64,000 nt of DNA, from contig JBFMEB010000001.1 of the NCBI GenBank assembly GCA_040753675.1, positions 32,498 through 96,497 on the forward strand, in the 5' to 3' direction. The position numbers and the translations under genes were made by a program. The notes under the pieces were generated by a model. The model did not search any database, was not told the DNA's origin, and saw only the letters and a program-made list of their open reading frames with translations. This DNA comes from Candidatus Omnitrophota bacterium (GTDB taxonomy: Bacteria > Omnitrophota > Gorgyraeia > JAHJTE01). Positions 28,397 through 56,435 of the stretch are shown in pieces. Every line of letters begins with the position of its first letter. The first letter of the stretch is position 1.

Positions 28397-28962
28397 TTTT
28401 TTGAAATATATTCAGAAAGATTTGGCTCTTTCAGAACTACCGCGTGTAAGGTGATGCTAATACTAAGATAAGCCAAATTCTCTCTCTGGCTAGCTTGTGG
28501 GGAGATCTGCAAACTTGTAATATCAATAAATCCCTCGTAACCCTCAGCTAGACTTAAAAATTGCCCGAGACTCAAGTAGTCGCCTTTTGCCATTAAGGTT
28601 ATTGGAGTGTAATTAAAAAATTGACCGCTTGTATCAGTCAAGAGCGGACGCAAAGATATTAAATCCAAGCCCGAACTTTTTGCCCATTCGTTAATCAAAT
28701 TTAGTAACCCAGCGGAATCTTTTTCAAAAAATATTTCTTTTTTATAGAGTTGAATGTCCTTTACTAAAGTATCGATATCGGAAAAAAGCGTATCTTTGCT
28801 CTTTTGGCTACTGATCTTCTCATGTAACAATTGGAGGGTGTTTCTATTCTTAGTGTTGATTTTAAACGCAACTAACAAAGCAACAACAGCCATAATAATA
28901 ACTACTACATTATCGGTTTTTTTAAAAATTTCTTCTGCTTTTATTTCATTTAAATTAATCAT
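28393..28962 (-). CDS. pilO: PilO-like pilus assembly protein
   Basis: Single N-terminal TM helix, coiled coil, C-terminal domain; position downstream of pilMN. Confidence 0.5.
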   Translation of the reverse strand: MINLNEIKAEEIFKKTDNVVVIIMAVVALLVAFKINTKNRNTLQLLHEKISSQKSKDTLFSDIDTLVKDIQLYKKEIFFEKDSAGLLNLINEWAKSSGLDLISLRPLLTDTSGQFFNYTPITLMAKGDYLSLGQFLSLAEGYEGFIDITSLQISPQASQRENLAYLSISITLHAVVLKEPNLSEYISKK

Positions 28963-28971
28963 AAGATAAAT

Positions 28972-30537
28972 TTATCGACATTGAATCTGAAATTGCCTAA
29001 CCACAAAATCATCGACCGAAGATTGACTCACGGAACTAAGGACAATCTCTTTAAAACCCTCTTTAAAGAGAGTATCTGAACGCAAATTATTTAGCAGTTG
29101 ATTAATCGCTGGTAACTCATCCTGGGACATCTCTAAATAAGCGAAACCTTCTAAATTTATTTCTAATGAATTTAAATCTTTCCTAAAGTTAAGACGCTCT
29201 AACCAAACACCTTCTGGCAGTAGTTTGCTTAAACGTTCTATTTTTTCTGTTAAGTAGACTTTCTGGCTAATCGTAGATTTAATTTGACTAAGTTCTCCTT
29301 TTAAAGATTCCTTTATCTTTTGCAAATCATTTAGTTCTAAGTTGGCACCTTTAAGGGCAAAAATACTTTTCCCTTTTAGTGTGACAAGATCAGAAACCTG
29401 TTTTTCAACTCTCTTTACTTTTATGTTACCCCAAAACCATATTAAAAAAACCATGCTTGTTAAGACTGCTACGGAGATAGCGTATTTCTTAAATGTTGTC
29501 TTCGAAATAAAAGTTTTTGATATTGCTTCAAATTGTGGCTGTGCCTTCTTAATTTGCGGCTCTTTTCTAAGAAGATTCAAATCAATAGGAAACCTTACTA
29601 TTTGTCTTAGCGAGGCGCCCGCTGCTTTAAGCAAATCACAATGTGCTCCTTCAATATTCAAGAGCTTGCCTGCCTCAAATGAGGCACATTTTATACCCAA
29701 TTCCTGCGTTATCATTTCTGCCCAAGAAATAACTTGGTTAGAGTCTGAAAAAAGATAAATATTTAAGATATTATTCTCTCGCCTATTCTGTCTATGTCTA
29801 AAATAATCAATCGAAATTCTAATTTCATTTACTAATTTAGATAGTACAGCCTGAGTTTCCTCTGAGCCGCCTATTGGCATAGATGAAGTCAGGCTTATAT
29901 CCCTAATAAAACAAGGCAAACCAGAATCTAAGATTATAATATCGCCGTTAGACAAATTAGAGTCTATATCTACAATTAAGGCACCTCTCTTTCCTTCTCG
30001 ATTTAACTTGGTCTTTATATAAGCTAAACGTAAAAAACTCAAAGATGATGGCTCAAGCGACAAAATATTAAAACCCACCTGGTTAAATACTTTAATATAC
30101 TTATCAATGATCTTCTTTTTAATTGCCGCAAAAATTATTTCTAAAGATTTAGCATCCTTTCTTTGGCTAATAAATTTAAATATTAATTCCTCAATTCTAA
30201 AAGGAATGTATTTTCTGGCTTCAAAATTTACTGTAGAATCCATGTCCTTTTTTGAAACAACCGGTATGTTAAAAAACCTTACCAACACGTCAAAAGCAGG
30301 CAAGGCAATATGTGCATCACGAGAACTAAAATCATTTTCTCTTATTGCCTTTTGTATTACTGCGGCGAATTTAATATCATCTTCAGATATCTCATCTAAA
30401 CTAGCCCCAAAAGAGGAAAGACTCTGTCTGCAATGCCTTCTAATTTCTTTGCCGGCAAATTCAACAATGCTTAATGCATCCTGGCCTAAATAAATTCCCA
30501 ATTGCGTCTTTTTAAGACTTTTTATTAATCTTTGCAT
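28972..30537 (-). CDS. pilM: PilM-PilN fusion protein (actin-like ATPase domain + TM + PilN-like periplasmic domain); start set at MQRLIKS
   Basis: N-terminal PilM-like region (LGIYLGQDALSIVEF...), TM helix AISVAVLTSMVFLIWFWG at about residue 375, coiled-coil C-terminus. Confidence 0.65.
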   Translation of the reverse strand: MQRLIKSLKKTQLGIYLGQDALSIVEFAGKEIRRHCRQSLSSFGASLDEISEDDIKFAAVIQKAIRENDFSSRDAHIALPAFDVLVRFFNIPVVSKKDMDSTVNFEARKYIPFRIEELIFKFISQRKDAKSLEIIFAAIKKKIIDKYIKVFNQVGFNILSLEPSSLSFLRLAYIKTKLNREGKRGALIVDIDSNLSNGDIIILDSGLPCFIRDISLTSSMPIGGSEETQAVLSKLVNEIRISIDYFRHRQNRRENNILNIYLFSDSNQVISWAEMITQELGIKCASFEAGKLLNIEGAHCDLLKAAGASLRQIVRFPIDLNLLRKEPQIKKAQPQFEAISKTFISKTTFKKYAISVAVLTSMVFLIWFWGNIKVKRVEKQVSDLVTLKGKSIFALKGANLELNDLQKIKESLKGELSQIKSTISQKVYLTEKIERLSKLLPEGVWLERLNFRKDLNSLEINLEGFAYLEMSQDELPAINQLLNNLRSDTLFKEGFKEIVLSSVSQSSVDDFVVRQFQIQCR

Positions 30538-30542
30538 AACTA

Positions 30543-30640
30543 ATTCACGAATTCTCACGAATTGCACACAAATTCTCACGAATAAATTCCGATGATAAAT
30601 TCGTGTTTATTTGTGTGTAATTAGTGTCCGTTCGTGTTCC
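30543..30640. promoter_or_regulatory. Operator-like repeat cluster: 3 direct CACGAAT repeats plus inverted ATTCGTG, inside a 19-bp imperfect palindrome cacacaaaTTCTCACGAAT / ATTCGTGtttatttgtgtg
   Basis: CACGAAT at 30546, 30556 and 30577; ATTCGTG at 30599; a further TTCGTG at 30631. Located between the HTH gene and the pilM start. Confidence 0.5.
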
Positions 30641-39134: not shown

Positions 39135-40118
39135 TTAGAGGGTGGGAAATTTTGAATATTTATTTCTCCAATAATTTAATAAATCCCTAAAAGTCGTTTC
39201 AATGGGTATCCGGGGCTTCCAATTAGTTACTTTTTGAAACTTTGAGGTATCCGGTATTTGCAAAGTAACGTCCGAAGGCCTCAACAATGAAGGGTCGACT
39301 TTGATTTTTATCTTTTTATTAGTCATGCTTAATAAAATTTTTAGCATTTGTCCTACCTTCATAGTACTATGTCCGCCAACATTATAAACCTCGCCCGCTG
39401 GACATTTATTAACCAAAAGCCAGTATGCTCGCACTGTATCACGAACATCACAAAAAGTCCTTATGCTATTTAAGTTACCAACAAATAAAACTGGTTTTTG
39501 TAATCCTTTTTCAATACGTGCAATCTGACGGGCAAAAGAAGAAGAAGCAAATACATCTCCCCTACGAGGACCAGTATGTGTAAACATGCGAGTGCGAATT
39601 GTCTTAATACCATAAGATATAAAATATTGATAGGCTAACATATCCTCTGCAACTTTGCTTACTGCATAAGGACTCGCCGGTCTAAAGCCTTGACTCTCTT
39701 TTATAGGAACTTCGTCTTTTTTAACGTGACCATAAACTTCTGAGGAACTACAGATATGTACAATGGGGTCAATTTTACAATAGCGTATCGCCTCGAGTAA
39801 ATTTATTGTTCCGCATACATTTGTTTCAATAGTATTAACTGGCGCATTAAAGCTGGTCTGCACATACGACTGAGCAGCTAAATGAAATATTATATCTGGT
39901 TTAATCTTTTCTATAGCCTCCAATGTCGATTTGAAATCCAGCAATTCGCAATAATGTAACTCTATTCTTTCCATAATTCCTAAGATGTTCTCTGTAGGAC
40001 TTCTCCAACGTCTGATGCCGTGGATTTTAATATTTTTGTCAGTCAATGATAAAAGATAATCTGCAAGATGACTACCTACAAAACCAGTTATACCAGTAAT
40101 CAAAATATTCCTTCGCAT
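39135..40118 (-). CDS. NDP-sugar 4,6-dehydratase family SDR (GDP-mannose/heptose 4,6-dehydratase-like)
   Basis: ITGITGFVGSHL Rossmann motif, FHLAAQSYV, ETNVCGTINLLEA, YAVSK catalytic motif. Confidence 0.6.
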   Translation of the reverse strand: MRRNILITGITGFVGSHLADYLLSLTDKNIKIHGIRRWRSPTENILGIMERIELHYCELLDFKSTLEAIEKIKPDIIFHLAAQSYVQTSFNAPVNTIETNVCGTINLLEAIRYCKIDPIVHICSSSEVYGHVKKDEVPIKESQGFRPASPYAVSKVAEDMLAYQYFISYGIKTIRTRMFTHTGPRRGDVFASSSFARQIARIEKGLQKPVLFVGNLNSIRTFCDVRDTVRAYWLLVNKCPAGEVYNVGGHSTMKVGQMLKILLSMTNKKIKIKVDPSLLRPSDVTLQIPDTSKFQKVTNWKPRIPIETTFRDLLNYWRNKYSKFPTL

Positions 40119-40146
40119 AATAAACTCCTTCAGGCAATAAAAACTT

Positions 40147-40941
40147 TTATATTTTTTTTATGGTCACTATCATATTATTACCAAAAAGTTGCATTAGTGG
40201 TCTAAAAATAAACTCAATAAAATTAACTACACCATATAAAAAATGAGGAACAAATGGCTTGTAAGTTAAGCCTCCGGACAAAGTATATCTAAGAAAATCA
40301 TGATAAATAAACGAAATTATTTTCAGTCTTTTAAATCTTTGTGTAAAAATATATGCATCTCTCTTAAAAATAATATAAGGCAAGGCCATATTAACCTTGG
40401 TTAGCCTGCCCTCAATAGTCTTATCTTCAATCTTCCAGCGCTTAAGAAGCTTATTGGTATATTCATTATGAAAATTTTTATTCATAAAATAACCGAAAGA
40501 ACTGCTTGAGGGCTCATTACAAACAAATATTCCATCAGATACTAAAACGCGCTGAATTTCTTCCAAGCACTTACCCGGATCCTCAATATGGTGCAAAACA
40601 CCATTAGCATATATAGCTTTTAAAGAATTGTCTGGAAAAGACAAACAAGTAACATCCTCCACACGATCAATCCCTTCAGATTCTACAATATCAGAAGTAA
40701 TTACATTAGGCAAAAATTCTTTTAAGAAACCGCCGCCACTACCTATCTCAAGTGAAGGAAAATTTAAATATTCTAGAGAATCTTCAATTTTTTTAAAATA
40801 CCTATATATAAAATTATAATGCTCAGTAAGTAGTGGACTTTTTTTAATAATACGACGATGTATGGAAATAGCCTCTCTCGAGTCAATATCAAGATTTCTT
40901 ACATCAGGCCTAATAAATATTTTGTTGAAGAATCCGCGCAC
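40147..40941 (-). CDS. Class I SAM-dependent methyltransferase
   Basis: LEIGSGGGFL motif I, acidic motif II. Confidence 0.6.
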   Translation of the reverse strand: MRGFFNKIFIRPDVRNLDIDSREAISIHRRIIKKSPLLTEHYNFIYRYFKKIEDSLEYLNFPSLEIGSGGGFLKEFLPNVITSDIVESEGIDRVEDVTCLSFPDNSLKAIYANGVLHHIEDPGKCLEEIQRVLVSDGIFVCNEPSSSSFGYFMNKNFHNEYTNKLLKRWKIEDKTIEGRLTKVNMALPYIIFKRDAYIFTQRFKRLKIISFIYHDFLRYTLSGGLTYKPFVPHFLYGVVNFIEFIFRPLMQLFGNNMIVTIKKI

Positions 40942-40956
40942 TAGGTTTTAAATTGT

Positions 40957-41691
40957 CTATACATATCGTTTTTTAGAAAATAACTGCTTTGCCCTTCTGT
41001 AACCATTTGGCGTGCCAAAATCAACTAACTCGAAATTTTGCTTAAATCCATAACATCTCTTATCCATAAGTACAATCTTTGGGAAAAAATCATGTTCTAA
41101 GGAAATGACCCTTCTTCTGGGCATAAAAGAAAAAATATCTCTGTCCATAAGGTAGGTGCCTGCACTATAGAAATTTTCTATTTCGACTTTTGTCTTTTCT
41201 CTAAAAACAATTATCCTCTGTCGGTTATCTAAGATTACTTTGCCAAAATTTCGATTATTACACTTATCAACCAAAGCAAGGGAAAGTAATGCCTTCTTTC
41301 TTAAATGGAAATTGATAAATTTGCCAAGGTTCAGACTTAAAAAAGCATCACCGTTCATAACTAAAAAGGGATTACTACGAATTAAATTTTTTGCTTTTTT
41401 TATTGCGCCGCCTGTACCCAATGGTTTCTCTTCTTGAGAATATAAGACCTCCCACGGCAAAGAATGAGCGCAATAATATCTTTTAATAAAATCTCCTTTA
41501 TAACCCGTACACAGAATAAACCTAGAAAAGCCAAAACTCGATACATATTCCATAAGCAGAGATAGAAATGGTCTGTTACCAAAAACAGCCATGGGCTTTG
41601 GCCGGTCTTTTAATATTGAGCTTAACCTCTTTCCTTCACCGCCGCAAAGAATAACCACGTCTATCTTGGATGGATTTGTGTAATTGCTCAT
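40957..41691 (-). CDS. hddC: Sugar-phosphate nucleotidyltransferase (HddC-like heptose-1-phosphate guanylyltransferase)
   Basis: VVILCGGEGKRL nucleotidyltransferase signature; adjacent to the heptose kinase. Confidence 0.5.
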   Translation of the reverse strand: MSNYTNPSKIDVVILCGGEGKRLSSILKDRPKPMAVFGNRPFLSLLMEYVSSFGFSRFILCTGYKGDFIKRYYCAHSLPWEVLYSQEEKPLGTGGAIKKAKNLIRSNPFLVMNGDAFLSLNLGKFINFHLRKKALLSLALVDKCNNRNFGKVILDNRQRIIVFREKTKVEIENFYSAGTYLMDRDIFSFMPRRRVISLEHDFFPKIVLMDKRCYGFKQNFELVDFGTPNGYRRAKQLFSKKRYV

Positions 41692-42692
41692 GGGGCGAAA
41701 AAGTCAGGGCGATAGTAAATTATCTGGCTTCCTAATTCTTCAAATTTAAAAGGGACATATAATATTTTTTTAAGTTTTTCTCTAACCCTAGGTTGCAATT
41801 CTGGTTTCACAAAAAACAATATGAAACCACCTCCGCCAGCTCCTAATATTTTTCCTCCCAATGCACCCCCCCTCATGCCTGCTTCATATATGTCATCAAT
41901 AATAGGATTAGTTATCTTATTGCTTAAACTTCGCTTCAGTTTCCAACTTTCATGCAAAAGTTTACCAAATGCTTCAAAAGTGGTTTTAGTGTTCAATATA
42001 TTTAGTGCCTGATTTACCATCTCATATATTAATTTTAATTCTTTATTTTTCTTTGGTATGTTCTCGATTTGTTCTCCTGCGATCTCTGAAGCCAACCGCG
42101 ACATTCCGGTAAAAAAAAGCATTAAATGGCTTTGAAAAAATCTTATTTTCTTGGAATATAAGGTAACCGGCCTTACTTCTATATTATTTTTGCCGGGTTT
42201 AAATTCAATTTTATTAAATCCTCCGAATGCGGCAGTAACTTGGTCTTGTGAACCAATATTTTCTTTAGCCCAATTCTGTTCTATTTCTATGGCTTCCAAT
42301 GCTAACTGTTTTTTGCTTACCATTTTACCTTTTAAAGCATATAACGCATTCAGGAGGCCAACTGTAAAAGAAGAACTCGAACCCATACCTGAGCGCGCTG
42401 GCAAATCTGCTACATGCTGTATGCTGATTCCACGCCTTACTCTCATAAACCGGAGGGTCTCCCTAGCGGTAGGATGCTGTATATCATTAATATTTTTGAC
42501 CATCTCGTGCTTAGAATAAAATATGCGATGTTTACAATCGAAGAATGGCTGAAGATAACCACAGGTAATGTAACAGTATTTATCAATACTGGCGGCAAGG
42601 ACAGCGCCCGGGTTCCTTTTGTACCAATCTGGATAATCTGTCCCCCCACCAAAAAATGATATGCGAAATGGAGTTCTACTTATAACCATCAA
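41688..42692 (-). CDS. hddA: GHMP kinase, D-glycero-alpha-D-manno-heptose 7-phosphate kinase-like
   Basis: RTPFRISFFGGGTDYPDWY N-terminus, characteristic of HddA-type GHMP kinases. Confidence 0.55.
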   Translation of the reverse strand: MMVISRTPFRISFFGGGTDYPDWYKRNPGAVLAASIDKYCYITCGYLQPFFDCKHRIFYSKHEMVKNINDIQHPTARETLRFMRVRRGISIQHVADLPARSGMGSSSSFTVGLLNALYALKGKMVSKKQLALEAIEIEQNWAKENIGSQDQVTAAFGGFNKIEFKPGKNNIEVRPVTLYSKKIRFFQSHLMLFFTGMSRLASEIAGEQIENIPKKNKELKLIYEMVNQALNILNTKTTFEAFGKLLHESWKLKRSLSNKITNPIIDDIYEAGMRGGALGGKILGAGGGGFILFFVKPELQPRVREKLKKILYVPFKFEELGSQIIYYRPDFFAP

Positions 42693-42719: not shown

Positions 42720-43235
42720 TCAGGAGACAAAATGACCAAGTTTATCTCTCTTTGAAAGCATGGGGTTTTTAATCGGCCAAGAAATATTAAATCTGGAGTC
42801 ATTCCATTTATATGTAAATTGATTTTTGGGATTATAATAGGTAGATTGTTTATAGTGAAATATCGCTAATTTACTCAAGACCAGATGAGCATTTCCATGC
42901 TTTGGCGGCACTAAAACTTGAAATCTATTTTTATCAGATAGAATAAATGATTGCCATTTGCCAAAATCTTTTGATGAAATATCGCAATTAACTACCACCA
43001 AATAAAACTTTCCGAATAGGCAGGATATTAATTTCCACGTCTGGTTATCACCGTGGATTCCCCGTAATACATTTTTCTTTGATACAGAGATATCATCTTG
43101 GATAAATTTTATATCTATACCATTTTGACAATACAACTCTTTATTATAAATCTCGGCGTATTCTCCGCGATGGTCTTTAAAAACATCTGGCTTAATCAGT
43201 AAAACTTTCTCTAGTTCTGTTTTCTCTATTCTCAT
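42720..43235 (-). CDS. RmlC-like cupin NDP-sugar 3,5-epimerase family protein
   Basis: FKDHRGEYAEIY, LRGIHGD, KFYLVVV...FGKWQSF, VLVPPKHGNAHLV motifs. Confidence 0.65.
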   Translation of the reverse strand: MRIEKTELEKVLLIKPDVFKDHRGEYAEIYNKELYCQNGIDIKFIQDDISVSKKNVLRGIHGDNQTWKLISCLFGKFYLVVVNCDISSKDFGKWQSFILSDKNRFQVLVPPKHGNAHLVLSKLAIFHYKQSTYYNPKNQFTYKWNDSRFNISWPIKNPMLSKRDKLGHFVS

Positions 43236-44566
43236 CTGCCTAAGTTCCTAGACTTATCAAAGCGCTCATAGGCCTCATCTTGATACTTAAGCAAGTCTTC
43301 ATTTGATACGTTTGATAAATTTATACCGACGCTATCATAATAATTGGTTGCCTCCATCTGTTCAAAGCTCCAGGGATCAACCAACCCTTGCAAACAAGCA
43401 AAGTCATAAACCTTTGTACCAGGATAGGGAGCAAGAATCATAAATTTTGATTGGTCAGCGTTTAGTTCAAAGGCGAAATCAATAGTCTCTCTGATGGTTT
43501 GATGAGTATCACCTGGCAATCCTATAATGTAGCTGGCTATGCTGGCAAGTTTTGCATCTTTCATTATCTTTATAGCTCTCCTAAAGTCCTCTTTTGTTTC
43601 CTTTTTCCCAATCTTACTCAGCATTTCTTCATTGCCACTTTCTACACCAAGAGCAGCGAATAAACATCCAGATTTTTTTAAGGCCTCAACCAATTCCTTG
43701 GAGACAGAATCTGCCCTTAACTGAACCGTATACCCTATTTCAATCCTATCTTCGATTATTCGCTTACATATAGAGAGTGCTCTTTCTTCATCTATTGCAA
43801 AATCATCATCCCAGAACATTAGATTCTTCACTTTTAAAATATTCACAATATACCTGATTTCTTTTATAACATTTTCAATTGAACGTAGCCTAATTTTTCT
43901 CTTCCAAGTGACATTGGAAACACAAAAAATACAATCGTATGGACAACCCCTTCCGGAGTATACAGCCAGATGTCTCCCATCAAAATAATTCGGATCTATA
44001 TATTCATTAATATTCATTAAGTCCCAAGCAGGAAAAGGTAACATATCTAGATTTTTTATGAAAGGGCGAACCTCATTTACCTTTATCATATCTTGGTTTC
44101 TATATACTAGATTTTTTATCGAATCTGGCTTCTTATTCCTCTCTAACGCATTCAGTAACTCCAAAAGAGCATCCTCGCCCTCTCCGATTATACCAAATGA
44201 AATCCCTTCAAAAAGCGAAACTGATGGAGCGCCAGTAAGATGGGGCCCACCAACTACTGTGATAACACTACTATCCCTTGCCTTTATTTCCTGAGCAATT
44301 TTTACAATAACCGGATATCTTGGCGTAAGGGTTGTAAAACAGACGTATTTGGGTGAGGATTCAAGAATAATATTAGCCATTTCACTATGAGAGGTCACAG
44401 GTGTTATTTCAAAATCCACAATTGAACAATCGTAATTGCCTTTCTCGCGAATAAATGAAGCCAGCAACGCAATATTTAAAGGGCAGCGGATAACCCCTTG
44501 TTTTTTCCATTGCTCTGATTTCTGCAGATTTGGCGCTCTGACAAAAACAACTTTTACTCTATTCAT
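43232..44566 (-). CDS. B12-binding domain radical SAM protein
   Basis: N-terminal cobalamin-binding Rossmann region and radical SAM CPYDCIFC. Confidence 0.7.
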   Translation of the reverse strand: MNRVKVVFVRAPNLQKSEQWKKQGVIRCPLNIALLASFIREKGNYDCSIVDFEITPVTSHSEMANIILESSPKYVCFTTLTPRYPVIVKIAQEIKARDSSVITVVGGPHLTGAPSVSLFEGISFGIIGEGEDALLELLNALERNKKPDSIKNLVYRNQDMIKVNEVRPFIKNLDMLPFPAWDLMNINEYIDPNYFDGRHLAVYSGRGCPYDCIFCVSNVTWKRKIRLRSIENVIKEIRYIVNILKVKNLMFWDDDFAIDEERALSICKRIIEDRIEIGYTVQLRADSVSKELVEALKKSGCLFAALGVESGNEEMLSKIGKKETKEDFRRAIKIMKDAKLASIASYIIGLPGDTHQTIRETIDFAFELNADQSKFMILAPYPGTKVYDFACLQGLVDPWSFEQMEATNYYDSVGINLSNVSNEDLLKYQDEAYERFDKSRNLGR

Positions 44567-46818: not shown

Positions 46819-47697
46819 TTAAGCTTTTGAATATTTTTTGATTTTGTTTTTTAATTTTTCTCTTATAGAAACTGAGTCAAGGCCTATTTTTTTTCTTACA
46901 TCATGAACGTTGCCATAACAAGAACAGAACTCATCGGGTATGCCATAATAGGATATATTTAAATGCGGAACTTCGCAAATCGCCTCATATAAACCAAAGG
47001 CATCATGGATAACCACAATTTCAGAATCTTTAAACCGACAAATTAACTCTTTATCAATAGGTTTTATTGTGTGAAAATAAACAAGATTAATATCTAAATC
47101 CTTACAAGCCTCCAAAACATTAGCAAGTATCGGACCAGCGGTTACAACTGTTAGCTTTGAATTTGTGTTTTTTAAAATTGCGCCTTTGCCAAATTCCACT
47201 GGCATATCAATCTTGTGCGGATAATCAGATAGCCGAAAATAAGTTGTCCGGCCATTGTTATATTGGCTGCGCAACAAAATATCTAACTCCTTAGTTGAAC
47301 CGGGCTGAATTATTTCTATATCTGGAAGTAATCTAAGAATAGCCAAATCAGTATAACAATGGTGAGTCGCACCATCCCAGGCATAATCAAAAGATGCACC
47401 ACAGGATACAATATTCGCTCCAAACTGATTATAACAAAGATCAAGCTTAACCTGTTCAAAACTTCTTTCAGTAATAAAAGGTGTTATGGTGTGGATAAAA
47501 GGATAAAACCCCTGAGAACTTAAGCCTGCTCCAACGCTTATCAGCGTATTCTCGCAGATTCCTATATTATAAAACCGGTTAGGGTATTTCTTTTTAAACT
47601 CATCAAAAAGGTAAACGCTCACGTCACCAAATAACAGGACTATTCGCTCATCATTATTTGATAAATCCATTATTGTTTCTCTAAACTGTTTCCTCAT
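46819..47697 (-). CDS. Transketolase family protein, C-terminal (pyrimidine-binding) half
   Basis: Split-transketolase architecture; overlaps the N-terminal half gene. Confidence 0.6.
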   Translation of the reverse strand: MRKQFRETIMDLSNNDERIVLLFGDVSVYLFDEFKKKYPNRFYNIGICENTLISVGAGLSSQGFYPFIHTITPFITERSFEQVKLDLCYNQFGANIVSCGASFDYAWDGATHHCYTDLAILRLLPDIEIIQPGSTKELDILLRSQYNNGRTTYFRLSDYPHKIDMPVEFGKGAILKNTNSKLTVVTAGPILANVLEACKDLDINLVYFHTIKPIDKELICRFKDSEIVVIHDAFGLYEAICEVPHLNISYYGIPDEFCSCYGNVHDVRKKIGLDSVSIREKLKNKIKKYSKA

Positions 47698-48466
47698 CCA
47701 ATTCCCTTAACAGTTTCTTAAGTTCCTCTGACGTAGGAGACTTCCTGTGCCACTCATAATGATTAGAAATAAGACTACGCGAACCAAACCCTTTTTTAGT
47801 GTGTGCGATTATTGCTCTCGGTTTAGATGAAACTACTAAAATCTCTTTTTTAAGTTGAGATATATCATGGCCATCAACTTCGACAGCCTCACATCCAAAA
47901 GCTCCTAATCTTTGTGCCGGGTTTTGTATCTGTAGCCCCCGCGAATGCGAGAGATTGTTATCGTAAATAATCGTAAGATTATTTAGTCCTAAATTAGTGG
48001 CTACCATTATAGCTTCCCAGACAGAACCTTCGTTAGCTTCTCCATCACCGATCAAAGTATAGACCCTGCGGCTATCTTCCTTTTTAATTTTTAACCCCAA
48101 AGCCATGCCTACTGCAATGGCGATACCATGGCCCAAAGATCCTGTAGATGCCTCTATCCCAGGAATCTTAATTCTATCCATATGGCAACCAAAATCAGAC
48201 GTAAATGAACCAAAGGAATAAACATTTTTAATATCAAAATAGCCAAAGTGAGCTAGGACACAATAAAGGCCAAGGCTGGCGTGACCTTTGCTTAAAACAA
48301 AAATATCACGCCTAGACCAACTTGGTTTTTTGGGATCATGGTTAATAGTATGATAAAGCGCATAAAGTATTTCAATCACTGAAAAACAGCTCGGTACATG
48401 GCCATGGCCACTCACATTAGAAATCTTCAAAATATCTTGTCTGATTCTTTTGCAATCTGGATTCAT
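47681..48466 (-). CDS. Transketolase, N-terminal thiamine-diphosphate-binding half
   Basis: GHGHVPSCFSVIEILYALY and GDGEANEGSVWEA TPP-binding motifs. Confidence 0.7.
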   Translation of the reverse strand: MNPDCKRIRQDILKISNVSGHGHVPSCFSVIEILYALYHTINHDPKKPSWSRRDIFVLSKGHASLGLYCVLAHFGYFDIKNVYSFGSFTSDFGCHMDRIKIPGIEASTGSLGHGIAIAVGMALGLKIKKEDSRRVYTLIGDGEANEGSVWEAIMVATNLGLNNLTIIYDNNLSHSRGLQIQNPAQRLGAFGCEAVEVDGHDISQLKKEILVVSSKPRAIIAHTKKGFGSRSLISNHYEWHRKSPTSEELKKLLRELDEETV

Positions 48467-49221
48467 CTAATCTCAATATAAGATACTCTCGCAGTCATTG
48501 GTAACCTCTGCACTCTGACATTATTTAAACTCAGCATTTCCTTCAAGGCAATGGTCTCTCCAGGAAATATATCGTCGCATAATTCATCAAATACCAATAT
48601 GCTGCCTTTACACAAATTAGGTTTAATTGTCTGGAGGGCGACTTTTGTCGGCTTATAAATGTCAAAATCAAAAATTGCCAAAGCAATTATAGTTTCCGGA
48701 TGTTTCTTGAAATAAGCCGGCACAGTCTTTATGGCATTGCCTTTTATGAGCTCGTACCTAATCAGATGAGACATCGGATTCAATGATTCTTGCATAGCTA
48801 ATATCCTATCAAGATAACCTATATAATCCCGAGGCAAGGAGAAGGAACCATCGCTACATTTGCTTAATTTTCCATCATGCCTACTTATGCCCTTAAGACC
48901 TTCGAATGTATCAAAACCCACAATTTTTCTATGTCTGTTAAAGGGCTCTAAAATTCCCCTTAGGGCTGACATAATGGAAAGTGTCTGGCCCCACCTTACG
49001 CCAAATTCGACAATTATACCGTGATGATTGACTATCTTCTTGTATATTTCATAAAAAAATAATATCCGAGACAAATTCTTTGAGGTTAAAAATAAACCGA
49101 GGTTAGGCAGCAATTCTTCATCCGGCAAAGGATTTACCTTGAGGCTATTTGTGAATTGTTTCTGAACCATTTTTTCTCTTTGACTCGATAAAACAATCGC
49201 CTTATATTTTTTTGTTTTCAT
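48463..49221 (-). CDS. TylF/MycF-family sugar O-methyltransferase (class I SAM MTase)
   Basis: IVEFGVRWGQTL and GFDTFEGL motifs typical of macrocin-O-MTase-like enzymes. Confidence 0.55.
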   Translation of the reverse strand: MKTKKYKAIVLSSQREKMVQKQFTNSLKVNPLPDEELLPNLGLFLTSKNLSRILFFYEIYKKIVNHHGIIVEFGVRWGQTLSIMSALRGILEPFNRHRKIVGFDTFEGLKGISRHDGKLSKCSDGSFSLPRDYIGYLDRILAMQESLNPMSHLIRYELIKGNAIKTVPAYFKKHPETIIALAIFDFDIYKPTKVALQTIKPNLCKGSILVFDELCDDIFPGETIALKEMLSLNNVRVQRLPMTARVSYIEIR

Positions 49222-50209: not shown

Positions 50210-50884
50210 TTATTTGTGAGGCAACAACTCCTTGATAATAAGCAATAAAATTGCCGTTCCGTTTATTAACGGTCTCATCTTTCTTATTCCGCCTATTCTC
50301 GGTGGTTCATCACCAGGGATTTCGCAAACCCTCAATTTTAATTTAGCGCATTTGACCGAACTCAAAGGCTCAAAGCCACCTATCTCGACAAATCGGTTTG
50401 TCTGCGCGAATTTAAATAAATCTTTCTTCCATGCCCTAAATCCAACCAGAGAATCAGTATAATGGCCGCCAAATAATATATTAATCATGTTCGTAAACAT
50501 CCAGTTCCCAAACCTAGTGATAACGTCATCGTCATAACTTTTTGCTCCTTCCCGATAGCGGGAAACAATGACCATATCAAAACCTTCGGCCATCTTGCTG
50601 ATAAGGGCTGGAATTAATTCTGGTATAGAATTTCCGTCCGGAGTAAAAGTCACAATGATATCCCCAGTAGCAATTTCTAATGCCTCCCTATAAGCATTAA
50701 CTAAACCCTTTGTTTTCTGCTCTAATACGAAACAGCCTTGCTCCTTTGCAAATTCCGCTGTGCCGTCGGTAGATTTTCCATCGACAACAATTATCTCGTC
50801 AACCCATTCCCTTCTAATCCTAGGCATTATTTGTTTCATGCCATCGATTTCGTTTAAAGTAGGTATAAGCAAAGTGGATTTCAT
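50210..50884 (-). CDS. GT2 glycosyltransferase (polyprenol-phosphate sugar synthase-like)
   Basis: LLIPTLNE...IIVVDGKSTDGT...DGNS DXD motifs. Confidence 0.7.
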   Translation of the reverse strand: MKSTLLIPTLNEIDGMKQIMPRIRREWVDEIIVVDGKSTDGTAEFAKEQGCFVLEQKTKGLVNAYREALEIATGDIIVTFTPDGNSIPELIPALISKMAEGFDMVIVSRYREGAKSYDDDVITRFGNWMFTNMINILFGGHYTDSLVGFRAWKKDLFKFAQTNRFVEIGGFEPLSSVKCAKLKLRVCEIPGDEPPRIGGIRKMRPLINGTAILLLIIKELLPHK

Positions 50885-50889
50885 TACGT

Positions 50890-52116
50890 TTATCTACAAT
50901 AAGGAACAATATTCTTTACTGCAAGTAGGACATAACTGATAGGATCGTAAATGTTGAAATTAAAAAACAGGTCTAAAACGTTAACATAGTTTACACAGAA
51001 GATAAATACTGCAGCTAAAATAACAAAATATGACTGATAGTCCTTATTTTTCTGTCTAAATAATTCATATAAAGCTAATGCCGCAAACAGACCTATAACG
51101 AAATCTAAAACTGCAATAAATCGCACAATTTTTGTATATTTCATGCTACTAAATAAAACAAAGATAATGACAAAAGAAACCAAGAAATATGTGACTTTCC
51201 AATCAAATCTCTTTGTAAACAATATATAAAAAAAATAACCTATAAATAAGAGTGTAGCTATTGGATTCAGTATCAGATAATCTATAACGTACTTATACCA
51301 CGGTCCCATCCCAAACAAAGAATAAGTATTCGTCATAGTCACTGGAAAATGAACCCCTGCTATAAATCTAATCAGCGAAACAAGATTATCTAAGCCATTA
51401 AATAAAAACAGGTAGGCACCTCCTACAATAATTAAAGGAGCAACAAACAACCATAGCAAATAAGAATATGATATGTCTTGCTTATATTTGTATCTATATA
51501 ACAGATAAGACAAAACAAAAAATGGCAATAAGGCAATGGCGGATTCTTTAATAGTTATGGTTAAAGAATACACAATTACAAATGTAACAAATTTAGTTTT
51601 TCTTTTATTAACTAAAAAATCAAAGAAAAGCCAAACAGATAGAGCCCAGGATAAATTAACTGTACTATCTTGTAAGCACCTTCTGCCAGAGTACATTATA
51701 ATAGGACTACTGGATAACAACAATGTAGAGATATAAGCTATATCTTGATCAAAAAATTTTTTAATAAAATAAAAGCACACTATAATGAGAAGTATATAAC
51801 AGAGAAATGAAAAATGCGCCAGCGAAACAAAGGTATTTGGAAATATCTTAAACCAAAACGAAGTTATTAAGATATGTCCGAATCTACTGGCGGGGTTAGG
51901 AAATTGTTGTGCAATCTTATCGCTAAGATGATACTCCCACAATAATGGAAATTGGCTAATTCCCTTTTCTTTTATAATCTTTGCATACATGAAATAATGC
52001 CCCTCATCGGCTCTATGGGCAAATTCATTTTCTCGCGGCATGGATAAATAGACTGTAAAAATAGAAAACAAAATAAGAGCTAAAACTACGGTTCGCATTA
52101 TTATGCTCATCTTCAT
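50890..52116 (-). CDS. GT-C fold membrane glycosyltransferase (PMT/ArnT-like, GT39/GT83-like)
   Basis: About 11 TM helices with ADEGHY acidic motif in the first extracytoplasmic loop. Confidence 0.5.
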   Translation of the reverse strand: MKMSIIMRTVVLALILFSIFTVYLSMPRENEFAHRADEGHYFMYAKIIKEKGISQFPLLWEYHLSDKIAQQFPNPASRFGHILITSFWFKIFPNTFVSLAHFSFLCYILLIIVCFYFIKKFFDQDIAYISTLLLSSSPIIMYSGRRCLQDSTVNLSWALSVWLFFDFLVNKRKTKFVTFVIVYSLTITIKESAIALLPFFVLSYLLYRYKYKQDISYSYLLWLFVAPLIIVGGAYLFLFNGLDNLVSLIRFIAGVHFPVTMTNTYSLFGMGPWYKYVIDYLILNPIATLLFIGYFFYILFTKRFDWKVTYFLVSFVIIFVLFSSMKYTKIVRFIAVLDFVIGLFAALALYELFRQKNKDYQSYFVILAAVFIFCVNYVNVLDLFFNFNIYDPISYVLLAVKNIVPYCR

Positions 52117-52159
52117 CTCTCTGATTTAAATTAAAGACTTTATTATAGCAAAAAATAAA

Positions 52160-52195
52160 GCCCACTGCAAACGCAGGCAAAGTTTCTTAATTTTG
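52160..52195 (-). terminator. Weak intrinsic terminator after the flippase gene
   Basis: Minus strand: CUGC-GUUU-GCAG hairpin followed by UUUAUUUUUUGC. Confidence 0.25.
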
Positions 52196-52214: not shown

Positions 52215-53438
52215 TTAATCTTTTTTGATTAAAATTTTGCTTAATAAATAAACATTACCTATCAATTGAGAAAATAACCAAGAATAGGCCATACCTAAGC
52301 TTCCCATTTTAAAAAGTAAGATAATCACAAAAAAAATCAAACTTATCAATATAATGAAACTTAAACTAAAAAAATCAAAAATTTCATTCTTAATATTTTT
52401 TAGAGTCAAATAGATTTGATTAATCGTGAAGGAAAAAATTGATAAAAAAAGCACTTTTAAAATTCCAAAAGAATGAAAGAAAAAATCTTTTTTAAAGAGA
52501 AGGAGAATCCCCTCTCCCCAAAAATAAAATAAAACAAATCCCAATATTGACAATAAAAAACAAAAACTTATCGTTTTTCTTAAGAGGGCTTTAACGTCTT
52601 CGCCGTGAGCAGCCTGCATTAAAAATACGCTAGAAATCGAAGCTATAAATGAACAGTAAACTGAAAATATCATCCAGGGGACATAAAATAACCCTACCTC
52701 GCGCTCCGAAAATAACGAAAGTATTATAAGAGGAAAAATCATCCCCGGTAAGTATAAGGTTGCAGCATTGAAGAAATTTACTAGAGAAAAGGGTAGTAAA
52801 TTCCTGAGTATAGAAAAATCAATCCTTAGCCTAATTTTAAAATTTGGATACTTCCTGACAAAAAAGATAAATGAAAAAATTAAGGCCAGGGCTGCAGCAA
52901 GACAATTAGCAGAAAATATCCCAAAACTCCTCCAAAATATAAAGACAAAGAGAAATCCAATCCTCAAAAAATTCTGCACTAAATTCTTAATTAAAGCCAG
53001 AGGCGTCTCTTGGTAGGCAAGAAAAATACCCTCAAAGCAAGTGAATAAAAACATAGTTACTACGAAAAATAAGAAAATTAAAGGATAAAAAGATACCTTT
53101 AATAAACTTAATTTAGGTAGAAAAAAGTCTATTCCTATTAATAGGCTAAGACTAAGAAAAATTAACAGGCTTAGAGAGAACCCAAGAAATGTTCCTAGCA
53201 ACTTAGACCTATCTTCATTTTGAGGCAGAAATCTCACAAATGTTGGAGCTAGGCCCAAGGATGCGACAAAAATCAAAAGTGAAACAACTGAAATTAAGGC
53301 AGAGGCAAGACCAATATCATCTATTGAGTAAAACCTGGCAGCTACCCACCAAAATATAATACCTGAAAAACCTAAAGATATTTTAGAGGCCATCAGCGTG
53401 GATGAATGAATAAAGAAATTACTGTTTTTGTTAATCAT
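52215..53438 (-). CDS. Wzx-like oligosaccharide flippase (polysaccharide biosynthesis protein family)
   Basis: 407 aa, 12-14 TM helices, typical Wzx hydropathy. Confidence 0.6.
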   Translation of the reverse strand: MINKNSNFFIHSSTLMASKISLGFSGIIFWWVAARFYSIDDIGLASALISVVSLLIFVASLGLAPTFVRFLPQNEDRSKLLGTFLGFSLSLLIFLSLSLLIGIDFFLPKLSLLKVSFYPLIFLFFVVTMFLFTCFEGIFLAYQETPLALIKNLVQNFLRIGFLFVFIFWRSFGIFSANCLAAALALIFSFIFFVRKYPNFKIRLRIDFSILRNLLPFSLVNFFNAATLYLPGMIFPLIILSLFSEREVGLFYVPWMIFSVYCSFIASISSVFLMQAAHGEDVKALLRKTISFCFLLSILGFVLFYFWGEGILLLFKKDFFFHSFGILKVLFLSIFSFTINQIYLTLKNIKNEIFDFFSLSFIILISLIFFVIILLFKMGSLGMAYSWLFSQLIGNVYLLSKILIKKD

Positions 53439-53448: not shown

Positions 53449-55686
53449 TTATGGATTAAATATTTTAAGCCAAAGTGAGCGAATTTTTCTTAACCAGGAA
53501 ATTGGTAGATACGTAGCAAGGTAAAAAACCACTACTTCTGGATACAATGGACTCAGTCTCAATGCCTTATTAAGCATCAATCTAGCCTCTCGCATACGAT
53601 TTTGGCCACAGAAAGATCTACCTAAATGGTAATAATGATAAGCCAGAGCTAATCGTTTCTCTCTAATCTTACTCCCATTTTTATCTTTTATAGACAAAGA
53701 ATGTAGAATAACTAAATCATCTCTTCCTTTTCTTCTTCTCTTAGCACACTCTCTGGCTAAGGCAGCGTATTTATCCTGTTGTGATTTTTTCTCAATAGAT
53801 ATGGAATTGTCTATAAGGCGCCACTTATATAAGAAATCCGGTAGATTCGCCAAATCAAAATACTCTGCAATTCTCAAATATAGATCGTAATCCTGGGCAT
53901 ATTTAAATTCTTCTCTATACAAACCTACCTTTTCAAGACATGTTCTCCTAAACATGATTGAGCCATGATAGAACTGATTTCCCAACATTAATTCTTTTTT
54001 TATTTGTTCACTTTCAGTAAATAAATTAATCTTGGCTATTTCTTTCCCCATTTCATCAATCTGAACTACAGCTGTTCCAACTAAACCAAAGGAAGGATGG
54101 TTTTCAAGGAATTCCACTTGTAGCTGAAGTCTCTGCGGCAAGGAAATATCGTCCAAATCCATTCTGGCAATATACTCACCTCTTGCAAGTTTCAAGCCAT
54201 TATTCAAGGATTTAGTTAAACCAATATTACTTAGATTATTAAATACTGTTACGCGTTTATCCGTAACTTCTCTCAACATTACACCTGTCTTATCTGTAGA
54301 GCCGTCATTTATAATAATTAATTCGAACTCGCTAAATGTTTGGTTTAGAATACTGTCCAACGCCTCTTTCAGATACTTTTGAGCATTATAAGCACTTATT
54401 ATCACGCTTACTTTGGGCAATCTTTTATCACCATAACTAATAAAGTGCTTTTTATTAGCGACAAACTTCTTTGGAGGAATTTTTCTAGATGAATCTTCTC
54501 CATAAAATTGATCGACTAACTGATTATGTCCTTTAAGATATAAGAGCCCGCGACTGTCTATATATTCGTAGAGCTGAGATTTTAAGACATAATCGTATAG
54601 TTCGCTCCTCGGAATACCTACAAATACATTAAACCAAACACTCGATGGTTTAATTTTTTTGGCGAAGGATAATGTCTCCATTCGTTCCTCTTCAGTCTCT
54701 GTAGGCAGGCCGACAATAAAGCTAGCTGCTGTTTTAATTCCTAATCTATGACAGGAGCTAAACGCTTTCTCAATTTGTTCGAGGGTTATTCCCTTTTTTA
54801 TAAAATCAAGTAAACGCTGATTTCCGCTTTCAACACCAAGATAAAAAGCTCGGCAACCCGCACGATGCATAAGATGCATCAAATCATAATCAAGTGCGTC
54901 GATTCTTGTCTCTGTAACCCACTTTATCTTGATATCCTTCCTTAAGAGCAATTCGCAAAATTCAACCACTCTTTTTCTATCGAAAGTGAAGTTATCCTCC
55001 CTGAAAAATATAGCTTTAGCTTTATATCTGCCGATTAAATATTCAATATCATCAATTATCCGTTTAGCGCTAAAGCAAGTATAGCGCTTGCCCCAAATTG
55101 AACAAACTGAACAAAAAGTACAATCAAATGGACAACCCCTGCTAGTATTCATTGTAAATACAGGTCTATCATGAAACCATTCCACTGAATCATCATACGG
55201 CAAGCCTTCGAAATAATCCCATGCACATCTTGGAAGAGCATCTAAATCTTTTATGCGCTCTGACCTTACAACCCTTCCAGTATTGCCGTTTAAAATCTCA
55301 AGCAAAGACATCTCACCTTCACCTTGAACTAAATAATCCACAGATTCTGGGATGGTATTAGGGGCCACTGACACATGAGGCCCACCCGCTATAATTTTAC
55401 CGTTCCATTCTTTATCCTTGCTCATTTTATCTATTTCGCCAATAACCTTACATCCTTCAAGAAAACATATAGAATCTAAATAGATACCAACATAATCTAT
55501 TTGCTTCTCAATAAGAAACATCTTAAAAAAGGAAGGTTTAATGTAATTATCAATAAAATAAACTTGATGCCCCTCCTTCCTAAGAATGGCAATTAAAAAA
55601 CCTAAACCTAAAGGTGGCCTCTTTTCTAAAAGCGAAAATGGTGAATATACGGGTTTAGGTGGAGTCATTAAAAGAATTCTTTTCAT
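53449..55686 (-). CDS. Fusion: B12-binding radical SAM domain (N-terminal) + GT2 glycosyltransferase (C-terminal)
   Basis: CPFDCTFCSV radical SAM cluster motif at about residue 190; C-terminal VSVIISAYNAQKYLKEALDSILNQTFSEFELIIINDGSTD GT2 motif. Confidence 0.7.
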   Translation of the reverse strand: MKRILLMTPPKPVYSPFSLLEKRPPLGLGFLIAILRKEGHQVYFIDNYIKPSFFKMFLIEKQIDYVGIYLDSICFLEGCKVIGEIDKMSKDKEWNGKIIAGGPHVSVAPNTIPESVDYLVQGEGEMSLLEILNGNTGRVVRSERIKDLDALPRCAWDYFEGLPYDDSVEWFHDRPVFTMNTSRGCPFDCTFCSVCSIWGKRYTCFSAKRIIDDIEYLIGRYKAKAIFFREDNFTFDRKRVVEFCELLLRKDIKIKWVTETRIDALDYDLMHLMHRAGCRAFYLGVESGNQRLLDFIKKGITLEQIEKAFSSCHRLGIKTAASFIVGLPTETEEERMETLSFAKKIKPSSVWFNVFVGIPRSELYDYVLKSQLYEYIDSRGLLYLKGHNQLVDQFYGEDSSRKIPPKKFVANKKHFISYGDKRLPKVSVIISAYNAQKYLKEALDSILNQTFSEFELIIINDGSTDKTGVMLREVTDKRVTVFNNLSNIGLTKSLNNGLKLARGEYIARMDLDDISLPQRLQLQVEFLENHPSFGLVGTAVVQIDEMGKEIAKINLFTESEQIKKELMLGNQFYHGSIMFRRTCLEKVGLYREEFKYAQDYDLYLRIAEYFDLANLPDFLYKWRLIDNSISIEKKSQQDKYAALARECAKRRRKGRDDLVILHSLSIKDKNGSKIREKRLALAYHYYHLGRSFCGQNRMREARLMLNKALRLSPLYPEVVVFYLATYLPISWLRKIRSLWLKIFNP

Positions 55687-55745: not shown

Positions 55746-56435
55746 TCAATAGCTTGGTAAGCGTGTAGCTTTAAAAAGAAAATAACCTTGGTTTTTAAAG
55801 ATTATTTCGTGGTTACCAAATACCTTGTCCAGAATTTCTGCAAGCATAGAATAAGAATAGAGACATAAATGATATTTATTTTTTTCCATAAGATACTTAA
55901 CGCTTTCACGAACATTTACAGCAGGAGTACTGCCTATCAATTTACCTCCAATCTTAGTAACTCTTTTTGCTTCTCTAAGAAACTGTATGCCATCATCGTA
56001 AGAGAAATGCTCCAAGGCCTCAATTGCGCTAACTACGTCAAAGTAATAATCATCAAATTGCAATGACAAGGCATCCATAACCAAATATCTTATGTTAGCC
56101 CTTAAGTATTTGACATTTGCTATATTTATCGCTTCGGGAGAATAGTCAATTCCCACCACATATTTTGCAACCTCTGCTAATTTGTAAGTACCCCAACCTA
56201 CGCCGCAACAATTATCTAGCACTATTTTGTCGCTCACCTCTTGGCGAACAAATTCAATGCGTTCCTTAAAAACATTCTGCCAAGGGCTGGCCTTCCATTT
56301 CGCTGAATCAGGATCAGCTCTCTCATCAACGTTTTCAGAAAGAAATCTCAGTTTTTTAGAAAACAATAAGCAATTTAGCATCAAGCTGTATCTCAAACAT
56401 CTTAGAAAACTAACTGTTGACTTATTGAATTTCAT
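55746..56435 (-). CDS. Class I SAM-dependent methyltransferase
   Basis: VLDNCCGVGWGT motif I. Confidence 0.6.
   Translation of the reverse strand: MKFNKSTVSFLRCLRYSLMLNCLLFSKKLRFLSENVDERADPDSAKWKASPWQNVFKERIEFVRQEVSDKIVLDNCCGVGWGTYKLAEVAKYVVGIDYSPEAINIANVKYLRANIRYLVMDALSLQFDDYYFDVVSAIEALEHFSYDDGIQFLREAKRVTKIGGKLIGSTPAVNVRESVKYLMEKNKYHLCLYSYSMLAEILDKVFGNHEIIFKNQGYFLFKATRLPSY

Follow-up and report, generated by a model that had tools for sequence, protein, structure and literature searches.

A B12-domain radical SAM module fused to a family 2 glycosyltransferase in an Omnitrophota glycan cluster: an uncharacterised but well-populated architecture

The gene considered here lies at 53449-55686, on the minus strand, of a 64,000-nucleotide stretch of contig JBFMEB010000001.1 (assembly GCA_040753675.1, Candidatus Omnitrophota bacterium; contig positions 32,498 to 96,497), which we call the window and whose numbering is used throughout. 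Its open reading frame, Pfam matches and an identical NCBI protein define a polypeptide of 745 amino acids (aa), in which a B12-binding-type domain and a radical S-adenosylmethionine (SAM) core are followed by a family 2 glycosyltransferase (GT2) domain and a helical tail. All features of this gene and its neighbours quoted below are on the same strand. Our conclusion is that the fusion is a genuine single gene, and that it probably encodes a bifunctional enzyme of cell-surface glycan assembly. Both of its parts are known kinds of enzyme, and functional partnerships between glycosyltransferases and radical SAM proteins are known in which the partners are separate proteins. The fused architecture itself is uncharacterised but well populated, and not rare as an earlier sequence-only reading of this DNA had supposed.

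The reading frame is uninterrupted over all 745 aa, in agreement with that reading, which had seen no frameshift or internal stop, and AAGGGG, a Shine-Dalgarno-like element, stands ~10 nt 5' of the ATG. Taking the Pfam gathering scores as the threshold for domain calls, the three domains that the sequence-only reading had named all score above it: B12-binding (PF02310, aa 24-130, 38.1 bits against a cutoff of 32.1), Radical_SAM (PF04055, aa 179-342, 83.5 against 29.5) and Glycos_transf_2 (PF00535, aa 427-586, 113 against 23.3). The motifs it had picked out, CPFDCTFC, ISAYN and INDGSTD, are likewise all in the translation, the latter two within the GT2 domain as VSVIISAYN and IINDGSTD. The protein is identical to NCBI MEW6008112.1 (P0001), recorded on a 113 kb contig as 'MAG: glycosyltransferase [Candidatus Omnitrophota bacterium]', MAG standing for metagenome-assembled genome, and the GC content across the fusion junction is even (0.34-0.38).

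We searched 5.8 billion clustered proteins for homologues and tabulated the best 120 clusters at 90% identity. Counting from this table, PF04055 and PF00535 occur together in 76 of these 120. The assemblies behind the fused clusters come from NCBI, JGI, ENA and Logan, and the source names include Omnitrophota, Cloacimonetes, Syntrophorhabdus, Syntrophobacterales, Syntrophales, Chitinispirillaceae, Geobacteraceae and Clostridiales, together with one partial archaeal record. Every fused homologue compared matches the query (residues ~2 to ~650) in one collinear BLAST stretch that crosses the junction, at 40-62% identity along the radical SAM module, the linker and the GT2 domain. An exhaustive HMMER search of 1.84 billion representatives at 50% identity gave 38 representatives in which a single stretch covers both halves, many of them 1,300-3,088 aa in length, and at least one close fused locus (L008, from a MAG) is among the matches listed in a scan of GTDB genomes. 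The search for the same domain order in other genomes that the sequence-only reading had proposed therefore finds it in dozens of proteins from several phyla.

This recurrence of the junction in independent assemblies, together with the flat composition, rules out an assembly artefact, as the sequence-only reading had held. That the fusion arose by a chimeric join, or by a lost stop between adjacent genes, is a reading whose probability we put close to nil: relatives do have split radical SAM and GT2 pairs, 6-160 nt apart, that one error could in principle fuse, but the two nearest relatives (P0002 and P0003, 61-62% identity), which come from other assemblies, are fused with equal length and an equal linker, one alignment spans the junction in each of the 38 clusters at 50% identity, the composition shows no break there, and all the deepest branches of the domain tree carry fused forms. 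In that tree, built on the radical SAM module by neighbour-joining with no bootstrap, the stand-alone forms are nested among the fused ones, so the topology suggests an old fusion followed by later fissions. Six more distant candidates from the GTDB scan (L018, L026, L030, L058, L060 and L083, with a match to query ~512-525) were rejected as fusions, since they are not single open reading frames; among them only L030 has a GT2 within 400 nt.

Many of the fused homologues are large, multi-domain proteins of 1,000-3,088 aa, carrying two or three GT2 domains and tetratricopeptide repeats (TPR). The giant relatives include P0123, and one representative of the family measures 3,088 aa. At L008 5290-10950 (plus strand), in a Thermodesulfobacteriota MAG, a protein of 1,886 aa has the order methyltransferase-B12-radical SAM-GT2-GT2-GT2-TPR. 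Proteins of this family are already public under generic names. The sequence-only reading knew of no characterised example, and the literature searched for this architecture yielded none; on radical SAM-glycosyltransferase fusions, or on B12-radical-SAM proteins in O-antigen or capsule loci, nothing relevant was found, the sole related item being a Brachyspira plasmid with uncharacterised radical SAM genes amid rfb and glycosyltransferase genes. As for cultured carriers, a protein search of PLSDB returned no fusion and no radical SAM match above 30% identity.

The association between the two activities extends beyond the fused proteins, and many anaerobes have the pair, fused or as neighbours, in their surface-glycan clusters. 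The radical SAM half belongs to a tight orthologous family (53-62% identity) whose members nearly always have a GT2 partner, either fused or in the next gene. Stand-alone members (53-61%) are common, and in all five independent loci sampled a GT2 gene directly adjoins the stand-alone radical SAM orthologue. In L001, L002 and L006/L007 this GT2 gene comes 6-158 nt downstream, and its product is 39-48% identical to the fused GT2, against 36% for the best paralogue in the window. As a control, we looked for a comparable same-strand GT2 within 400 nt in distant B12-radical-SAM loci (27-36% identity), and found one in only 1 of 79. The link between radical SAM and GT2 is thus specific to the fusion family.

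Directly upstream of the fusion gene, across a 59-nt gap, is a gene for a class I SAM methyltransferase (55746-56435; PF08241, 72.5 bits). In L088, L089 and L001 the radical SAM gene or fusion is immediately preceded by a gene that matches it with 33-44% identity and more than 100 bits; other methyltransferases of these loci score ~33 bits against it. The methyltransferase of the window is also 33-37% identical to the methyltransferase domain that is fused N-terminally in P0019, P0062 and P0057, and the L008 protein, too, has a methyltransferase fused at its N-terminus. Methyltransferase, radical SAM protein and GT2 are therefore a recurrent module, which in the window sits within a surface-glycan cluster.

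We modelled the fusion with AlphaFold2, using a 49-sequence alignment. The full-length model has a mean predicted local distance difference test (pLDDT) score of 90.9 and a predicted template-modelling (pTM) score of 0.61, against a pTM of 0.88 for the N-terminal module modelled alone. Three segments are confidently predicted: aa 1-405, comprising a Rossmann-type domain with a five-strand pattern, the radical SAM barrel and a short C-terminal subdomain; aa 424-655, with a GT-A fold; and aa 675-743, which is helical. The pLDDT falls below 50 at aa 408-421 and at aa 661-674. The former is the inter-domain linker, FVANKKHFISYGDK, of 14 residues (54424-54465), which is predicted to be disordered, and the latter precedes a C-terminal helical, TPR-like tail (aa 675-743; 53458-53664) of four helices with pLDDT 86-93. 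This tail is found in stand-alone GT2 orthologues as well, and many homologues have longer TPR arrays. The sequence-only reading had placed the linker at residues 330-420; residues 330-405, however, are part of the radical SAM module, being conserved in stand-alone orthologues to ~404 and modelled at a pLDDT of at least 88. The C-terminal part of that module spans aa 343-405 (54472-54660; pLDDT 88-98).

Conservation was assessed over 49 fused and 31 stand-alone relatives. In the alignment of the 49 fused proteins, conservation reaches at least 90% in 139 columns, of which 111 fall in the radical SAM module and 28 in the GT2 domain. The query retains 132 of the 139, so neither half looks degenerate. 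The motifs CxxxCxxC, GGPH, GEGE and DxDD, and the residue D599, are invariant or at least 90% conserved in the relatives.

From the covalent fusion the sequence-only reading had drawn substrate channelling. The predicted structure instead supports tethering, with two well-folded modules joined by a disordered linker of 14 residues. This flexible linker, the natural occurrence of split neighbours and the existence of GT2 orthologues that have no radical SAM partner together argue against obligatory channelling. What is supported is functional coupling within one pathway, whether by tethering or by co-expression.

Within the radical SAM half, the N-terminal Rossmann-type domain (aa 24-130; 55297-55617) carries the family-invariant GGPH (aa 101-104), GEGE (aa 122-125) and C74. 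It is followed by the TIM-barrel core (aa 179-342; 54661-55152), in which the [4Fe-4S] motif CxxxCxxC reads CPFDCTFC (55111-55134); its cysteines C185, C189 and C192 are invariant in the 49 fused and 31 stand-alone sequences, and C244 is also conserved. Foldseek matches this half with probability 1.00 to AprD4, MgmA, TsrM, OxsB, CysS, TokK and MiaB. By fold, AprD4 ranks first (TM 0.73-0.77, over the full AprD4 length), followed by MgmA, TsrM, OxsB, CysS and TokK. By sequence, the best solved structure is again AprD4 (6FD2), at 84 bits with the single sequence and 115 bits with the family profile, and the second is the glutamine C-methyltransferase MgmA/QCMT (9CCB). The AprD4 sequence match starts only at residue ~146. 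The GGPH/GEGE region of the N-domain aligns weakly with the cobalamin-dependent TokK (E = 0.014) and with 4Q37. Partial NCBIfam scores were also obtained for ApyD (147 bits), a ladderane-lipid radical SAM protein (133), BchE (132) and PhpK (129).

The sequence-only reading had called the N-terminal domain cobalamin-binding. The PF02310 domain is indeed present, but 'B12-binding' is a domain label, and it does not by itself decide whether cobalamin is used, since AprD4, the best structural relative, has such a domain and no cobalamin. Given the PF02310 score, the weak alignment with TokK and 4Q37, the late start of the AprD4 match and the strongly conserved loop residues, cobalamin dependence of the fusion is plausible. 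Alongside this we note that the query departs from its family in the loop at aa 71-78, which reads D-S-I-C-F-L-E-G against a family pattern of N-T-[IV]-C-[YF]-R-D-T and lies where TokK puts its lower-axial residue, and that it has T at the near-invariant C258. When columns conserved in at least 90% were compared, P0002 and P0003 did not deviate at N71, T72 and C258, where the query does.

The GT2 half is a GT-A fold domain at aa 424-640 (53767-54417; PF00535 and conserved columns). Its DxDD donor- and metal-binding motif is DLDD (aa 510-513; 54148-54159), with D513 invariant and D510 and D512 at least 90% conserved. D461, S463 and D465, D510, D512 and D513, and D599 are each conserved in at least 90% of the 49 sequences. 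By analogy with SpsA-type GT2 enzymes, D461, S463 and D465 would be nucleotide-binding and D599 the putative catalytic base. The domain is of EpsE/TuaG/WcaA/PglI-like type, all at sub-cutoff NCBIfam scores (EpsE NF053739, 149.5 bits against 450; TuaG NF047683, 91.6 against 400; WcaA TIGR04017, 62 against 495.75). Its closest structural comparisons are a Leptospira GT2 (6p61; 35% identity, TM 0.92) and SpsA (TM 0.72), and its best sequence match is the chondroitin polymerase K4CP (2Z86), at 102 bits. The match to Dpm1-type polyprenyl-phosphate glycosyltransferases is weak (28.9 bits). Given this weak match and the likeness to EpsE, K4CP, 6p61 and SpsA, the GT2 half probably extends an oligosaccharide rather than charging a lipid carrier.

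Our proposal for how the two halves would work together is as follows. The GT2 domain, as an inverting GT-A enzyme of the EpsE/WcaA/SpsA type, would work at the cytoplasmic face of the membrane, taking a sugar from its nucleotide-activated form and transferring it to an oligosaccharide carried on polyprenyl diphosphate. The tethered radical SAM module would reductively cleave SAM at its [4Fe-4S] cluster to give the 5'-deoxyadenosyl radical, which would take a hydrogen from an unactivated carbon of the newly added sugar or of an adjacent one. Cobalamin-mediated C-methylation of the sugar would follow, in the manner of GenD1 and GenK on aminoglycoside sugars, and that residue would also receive an O- or N-methyl group from the neighbouring methyltransferase. 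Through the fusion the two activities would be co-localised at a fixed stoichiometry, with no sealed channel. We place the radical step after glycosyl transfer because the closest characterised sugar-acting relatives act there: AprD4 acts on paromamine, GenD1 and GenK act on a pseudotrisaccharide (where the sugar they modify is also a substrate of the class I methyltransferase GenN), and HpnJ acts after the glycosyltransferase HpnI, the reaction of HpnJ being itself a hypothesis. Of the outcomes considered for the radical step, cobalamin-dependent C-methylation of a sugar on a lipid-linked glycan is the one we tentatively favour, and we would stop short of calling it probable; what it leaves over, together with dehydration or deoxygenation and skeletal rearrangement, goes to other outcomes.

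It is important to note that several observations weigh against this proposal. The best match by both sequence and fold, AprD4, is no methylase and binds no cobalamin. None of the more than 25 NCBIfam models that score the radical SAM half reaches its cutoff, and the top one, HpnJ (TIGR03471), scores 157.1 bits against 577.6, over aa 134-372 only. In TokK, Trp76 is a hydrophobic lower-axial residue under the cobalamin, typical of radical methylases; opposite it the query has E77 (D77 in the family, with R76 beside it), in an alignment (E = 0.014) too weak for the assignment of single residues. If that alignment were to hold, an acidic residue at the lower-axial position would argue, with low confidence, against a radical methylase. 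No cobalamin riboswitch was found within the 64-kb window, and the literature search found no biochemical data on any member of the family. Furthermore, the nearest stand-alone GT2 orthologues, P0230 (55%) and P0243 (47%), lie in loci with a methyltransferase and no radical SAM gene. The radical reaction is therefore an optional tailoring step, one that the GT2 can do without. In locus L091 an unrelated 360-aa protein is encoded between the methyltransferase and the GT2 (1514-2596, plus strand), in the position that the radical SAM gene takes in other loci, and has only a sub-threshold match to a prenyltransferase/alpha-alpha-toroid family (23.9 against 26.5 bits); it may have taken over the tailoring as a non-homologous substitute.

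There are four other possible accounts of the chemistry or its order. The first, which we consider rather unlikely, is that the module is an AprD4-like, cobalamin-independent dehydratase, whose 'B12-binding' domain is a structural Rossmann remnant only. Hydrogen abstraction next to a vicinal diol of the transferred sugar would be followed by loss of water to a keto-deoxy sugar and reduction by a short-chain dehydrogenase/reductase (SDR) of the cluster, for a net deoxygenation. The first rank of AprD4 by sequence and fold speaks for this account, as do the C244 and ETR motif that the two have in common in alignment, their similarly compact size (~430-450 aa, both lacking the large domain that TokK, CysS and OxsB have at the C-terminus), the action of AprD4 on a glycoside without cobalamin, and the three SDR genes in the cluster. 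Nevertheless, the AprD4 NCBIfam model (NF033070) scores only 100.7 bits against a cutoff of 500, over aa 124-359. The two N-domains cannot be aligned by sequence, whereas the cobalamin binders MgmA and TokK align through GGPH, and the conserved loops GGPH and GEGE and residue C74 suggest a bound ligand. Nor is an SDR consistently adjacent in related loci, where no consistent AprD3-like reductase partner was found either; the consistent partner is the methyltransferase.

The second account, to which we give a low probability, keeps both activities and reverses their order: the radical SAM module would modify the nucleotide-sugar donor, and the GT2 would then transfer the modified sugar. A fusion would serve the hand-over of a labile modified donor equally well, and the much greater conservation of the radical SAM half (the 111 columns against 28) fits a fixed small-molecule substrate with variable acceptors. 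Against this, AprD4, GenD1/GenK and HpnJ act on glycosides and not on nucleotide sugars, and the closest stand-alone GT2 orthologues work without a radical SAM partner, so that their donor does not need it. The loci offer no consistent sugar-nucleotide context that would identify the donor: the window has heptose and GDP-mannose genes, L001 and L005 have DegT aminotransferases, and L090 has NeuB, NeuC and NeuA.

Under the third account, which we think a long shot, methyltransferase, radical SAM protein and GT2 together make a sugar modification new to polysaccharides, for example a stepwise, CysS-like radical extension of the O-methyl group from the partner methyltransferase to O-ethyl or O-isopropyl, or a C-alkylation or carbocycle formed directly on a lipid-linked glycan. 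CysS extends a methoxy group put on by an ordinary methyltransferase, which offers a possible logic for the pairing of methyltransferase and radical SAM protein. Were this account true, the relatives of 1,000-3,088 aa would be assembly lines, polymerising a surface polymer and tailoring it by radical chemistry in one polypeptide.

The fourth, very doubtful in our judgement, is that the radical SAM module rearranges the sugar skeleton, for example in a ring contraction to a cyclitol or carbasugar of the kind proposed for HpnJ and shown for OxsB, with cobalamin, if any, acting as an electron sink and not as a methyl carrier. HpnI/HpnK/HpnJ, in which the glycosyltransferase acts before the radical SAM protein, offer a direct precedent, no NCBIfam model scores higher than HpnJ, OxsB matches at TMq 0.75, and the polar lower-axial residue would resemble the non-methylating OxsB and TsrM if the TokK alignment is right. 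However, the HpnJ match covers only part of the protein and lies far under its cutoff, the reaction of HpnJ is itself only hypothetical, and the real HpnJ-like protein of the cluster is encoded elsewhere, at 59381-60814.

That stand-alone B12-radical-SAM gene has a full-length HpnJ match (1-471 of 472; 393.5 bits against 577.6), and its product is 31% identical to the fusion. A GT2 gene flanks it on one side and a gene for a GT-C (PMT) membrane glycosyltransferase on the other; no hopanoid genes are seen around it, and it may encode a sugar-remodelling HpnJ relative for a surface-glycan pathway. A third B12-radical-SAM gene, at 43232-44566 (444 aa), adjoins RmlC-like epimerase and SDR genes; its product is 27% identical to the N-terminal half of the fusion and 31% to the HpnJ-like protein. 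Three different radical SAM families thus stand within one glycan cluster, the two stand-alone members being 27-31% identical to the fusion.

This cluster is co-directional over ~24 kb: from ~39.1 kb to the end of the window all genes are on the minus strand and concern glycan synthesis. Directly downstream of the fusion gene, after a 10-nt gap, is a candidate Wzx-type flippase (52215-53438; PF01943, Polysacc_synt, 30.4 bits against 28.2). The sugar genes of the cluster encode a GDP-mannose-dehydratase-type enzyme, an HddC-like nucleotidyltransferase, an HddA-like kinase, an RmlC-like epimerase and the three SDR enzymes. There are also a split transketolase, methyltransferases, two GT-C membrane proteins, a small GT2 resembling AglJ and dolichyl-phosphate-mannose (DPM) synthase, and five further glycosyltransferases of families GT2 and GT4; glycosyltransferase genes neighbouring the fusion lie at 56443, 57276 and 58395.

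Some of these neighbours give hints about the sugars involved. A branch that supplies the cluster with GDP-heptose or a GDP-6-deoxy sugar is indicated by genes at 39135-42692, whose products, all at sub-equivalog scores, are a GDP-mannose-4,6-dehydratase-type enzyme, a methyltransferase, an HddC-like guanylyltransferase and an HddA-like GHMP kinase. The N- and C-terminal halves of the transketolase are separate genes (46819-48466, and 48463-49221), with a weak TylF-like methyltransferase after them and SDR genes on their flanks, which suggests that two carbons are added to a sugar, as a branch or to lengthen its chain. The GT-C-type membrane proteins PMT_2 (50210-52116) and PMT (60822-62147), together with the AglJ/dolichyl-phosphate-hexose-transferase-like GT2, imply an extra, non-cytoplasmic glycosylation from a polyprenyl-phosphate sugar.

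With regard to transcription, a terminator-like hairpin with a T-run lies at 52160-52178, in the 98-nt gap after the flippase gene, and may, as an operon boundary, separate the unit of fusion and flippase from the GT-C gene; it overlaps a promoter-like extended -10 site (52142-52171). Terminator-like matches in the region number 8 against 3.1 expected, whereas promoter-like sites around the fusion gene are no commoner than chance predicts (19 against 21.4).

Further away, type IV pilus genes (PilB-, PilC-, secretin- and PilM/N-like) occupy 23288-30579, likewise on the minus strand, at a distance of ~9 kb from the glycan genes. Pilin and pilus genes abut the radical SAM-GT2 cluster in L090 (13235-18235), and in L002 (2034-7689) it abuts a pilin gene and genes for two proteins with a Wzy_C domain. 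Use of the cluster's glycan in O-glycosylation of pilin or another protein is a possibility. The window also contains a class A RNase P RNA (158.7 bits) and three tRNA genes (Val-CAC, Met-CAT and Ala-CGC), at 4303-4659, 5852-6190 and 17230-17303 (minus strand), and these housekeeping genes identify it as chromosomal.

For most radical SAM enzymes, to our knowledge, no substrate has been identified, and the need to find one is what chiefly hinders their characterisation. Here, the covalent or adjacent GT2 and methyltransferase point to a likely one, the sugar just attached by the GT2, and an orphan radical SAM family of at least 38 clusters at 50% identity, from several bacterial phyla and one archaeal record, thereby becomes directly testable. 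If C-methylation, deoxygenation or rearrangement of a lipid-linked glycan were true, radical tailoring of sugars would move from antibiotics to the cell-envelope biosynthesis of uncultivated anaerobes, on whose surfaces unusual sugars would be predicted. Should the enzyme turn out to be an ordinary methylase, what is gained is useful annotation rather than a surprise.

Among known systems, AprD4 (6FD2), the radical SAM 1,2-diol dehydratase of apramycin synthesis, is like the N-terminal module of the fusion in joining a Rossmann-type N-domain to a radical SAM barrel at a similar size, and its substrate, a sugar ring inside a glycoside, resembles the one we propose. It differs in being only ~20% identical, in standing alone in an antibiotic pathway, where its partner is the reductase AprD3 and not a glycosyltransferase or methyltransferase, and in its lack of cobalamin. 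CysS and TokK, which are iterative, cobalamin-dependent radical SAM methylases, share the class I B12-radical-SAM fold, and the GGPH/GEGE region of TokK aligns with that of the fusion; their TM to the target is only 0.43-0.48, however, and they have an extra C-terminal domain and carrier-linked small-molecule substrates.

Parallels in pathway logic are provided by GenD1 and GenK of gentamicin synthesis, and by HpnI, HpnK and HpnJ of the hopanoid side chain. GenD1 and GenK are C-methyltransferases with a B12 domain and a radical SAM core, which act on unactivated sugar carbons after glycosyl transfer, and GenN parallels the methyltransferase of our module. Unlike the fusion they are separate ~77 kDa proteins acting on a soluble antibiotic and not on a lipid-linked surface glycan, the GenD1 motif is Cx4Cx2C, and the likeness meant here is one of domain layout and reaction. 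In the hopanoid pathway a glycosyltransferase first attaches a sugar to a lipid, and the remodelling of that sugar then requires a radical SAM protein with a B12 domain, but the genes are separate, the match to the fusion is partial and sub-threshold, and the hopanoid context is missing at the fusion. Finally, the long homologues with several GT2 domains and TPR repeats resemble multi-domain polymerases such as K4CP (2Z86), whereas K4CP has no radical SAM module, and the protein described here has a single GT2 domain and is encoded beside a Wzx-type flippase.

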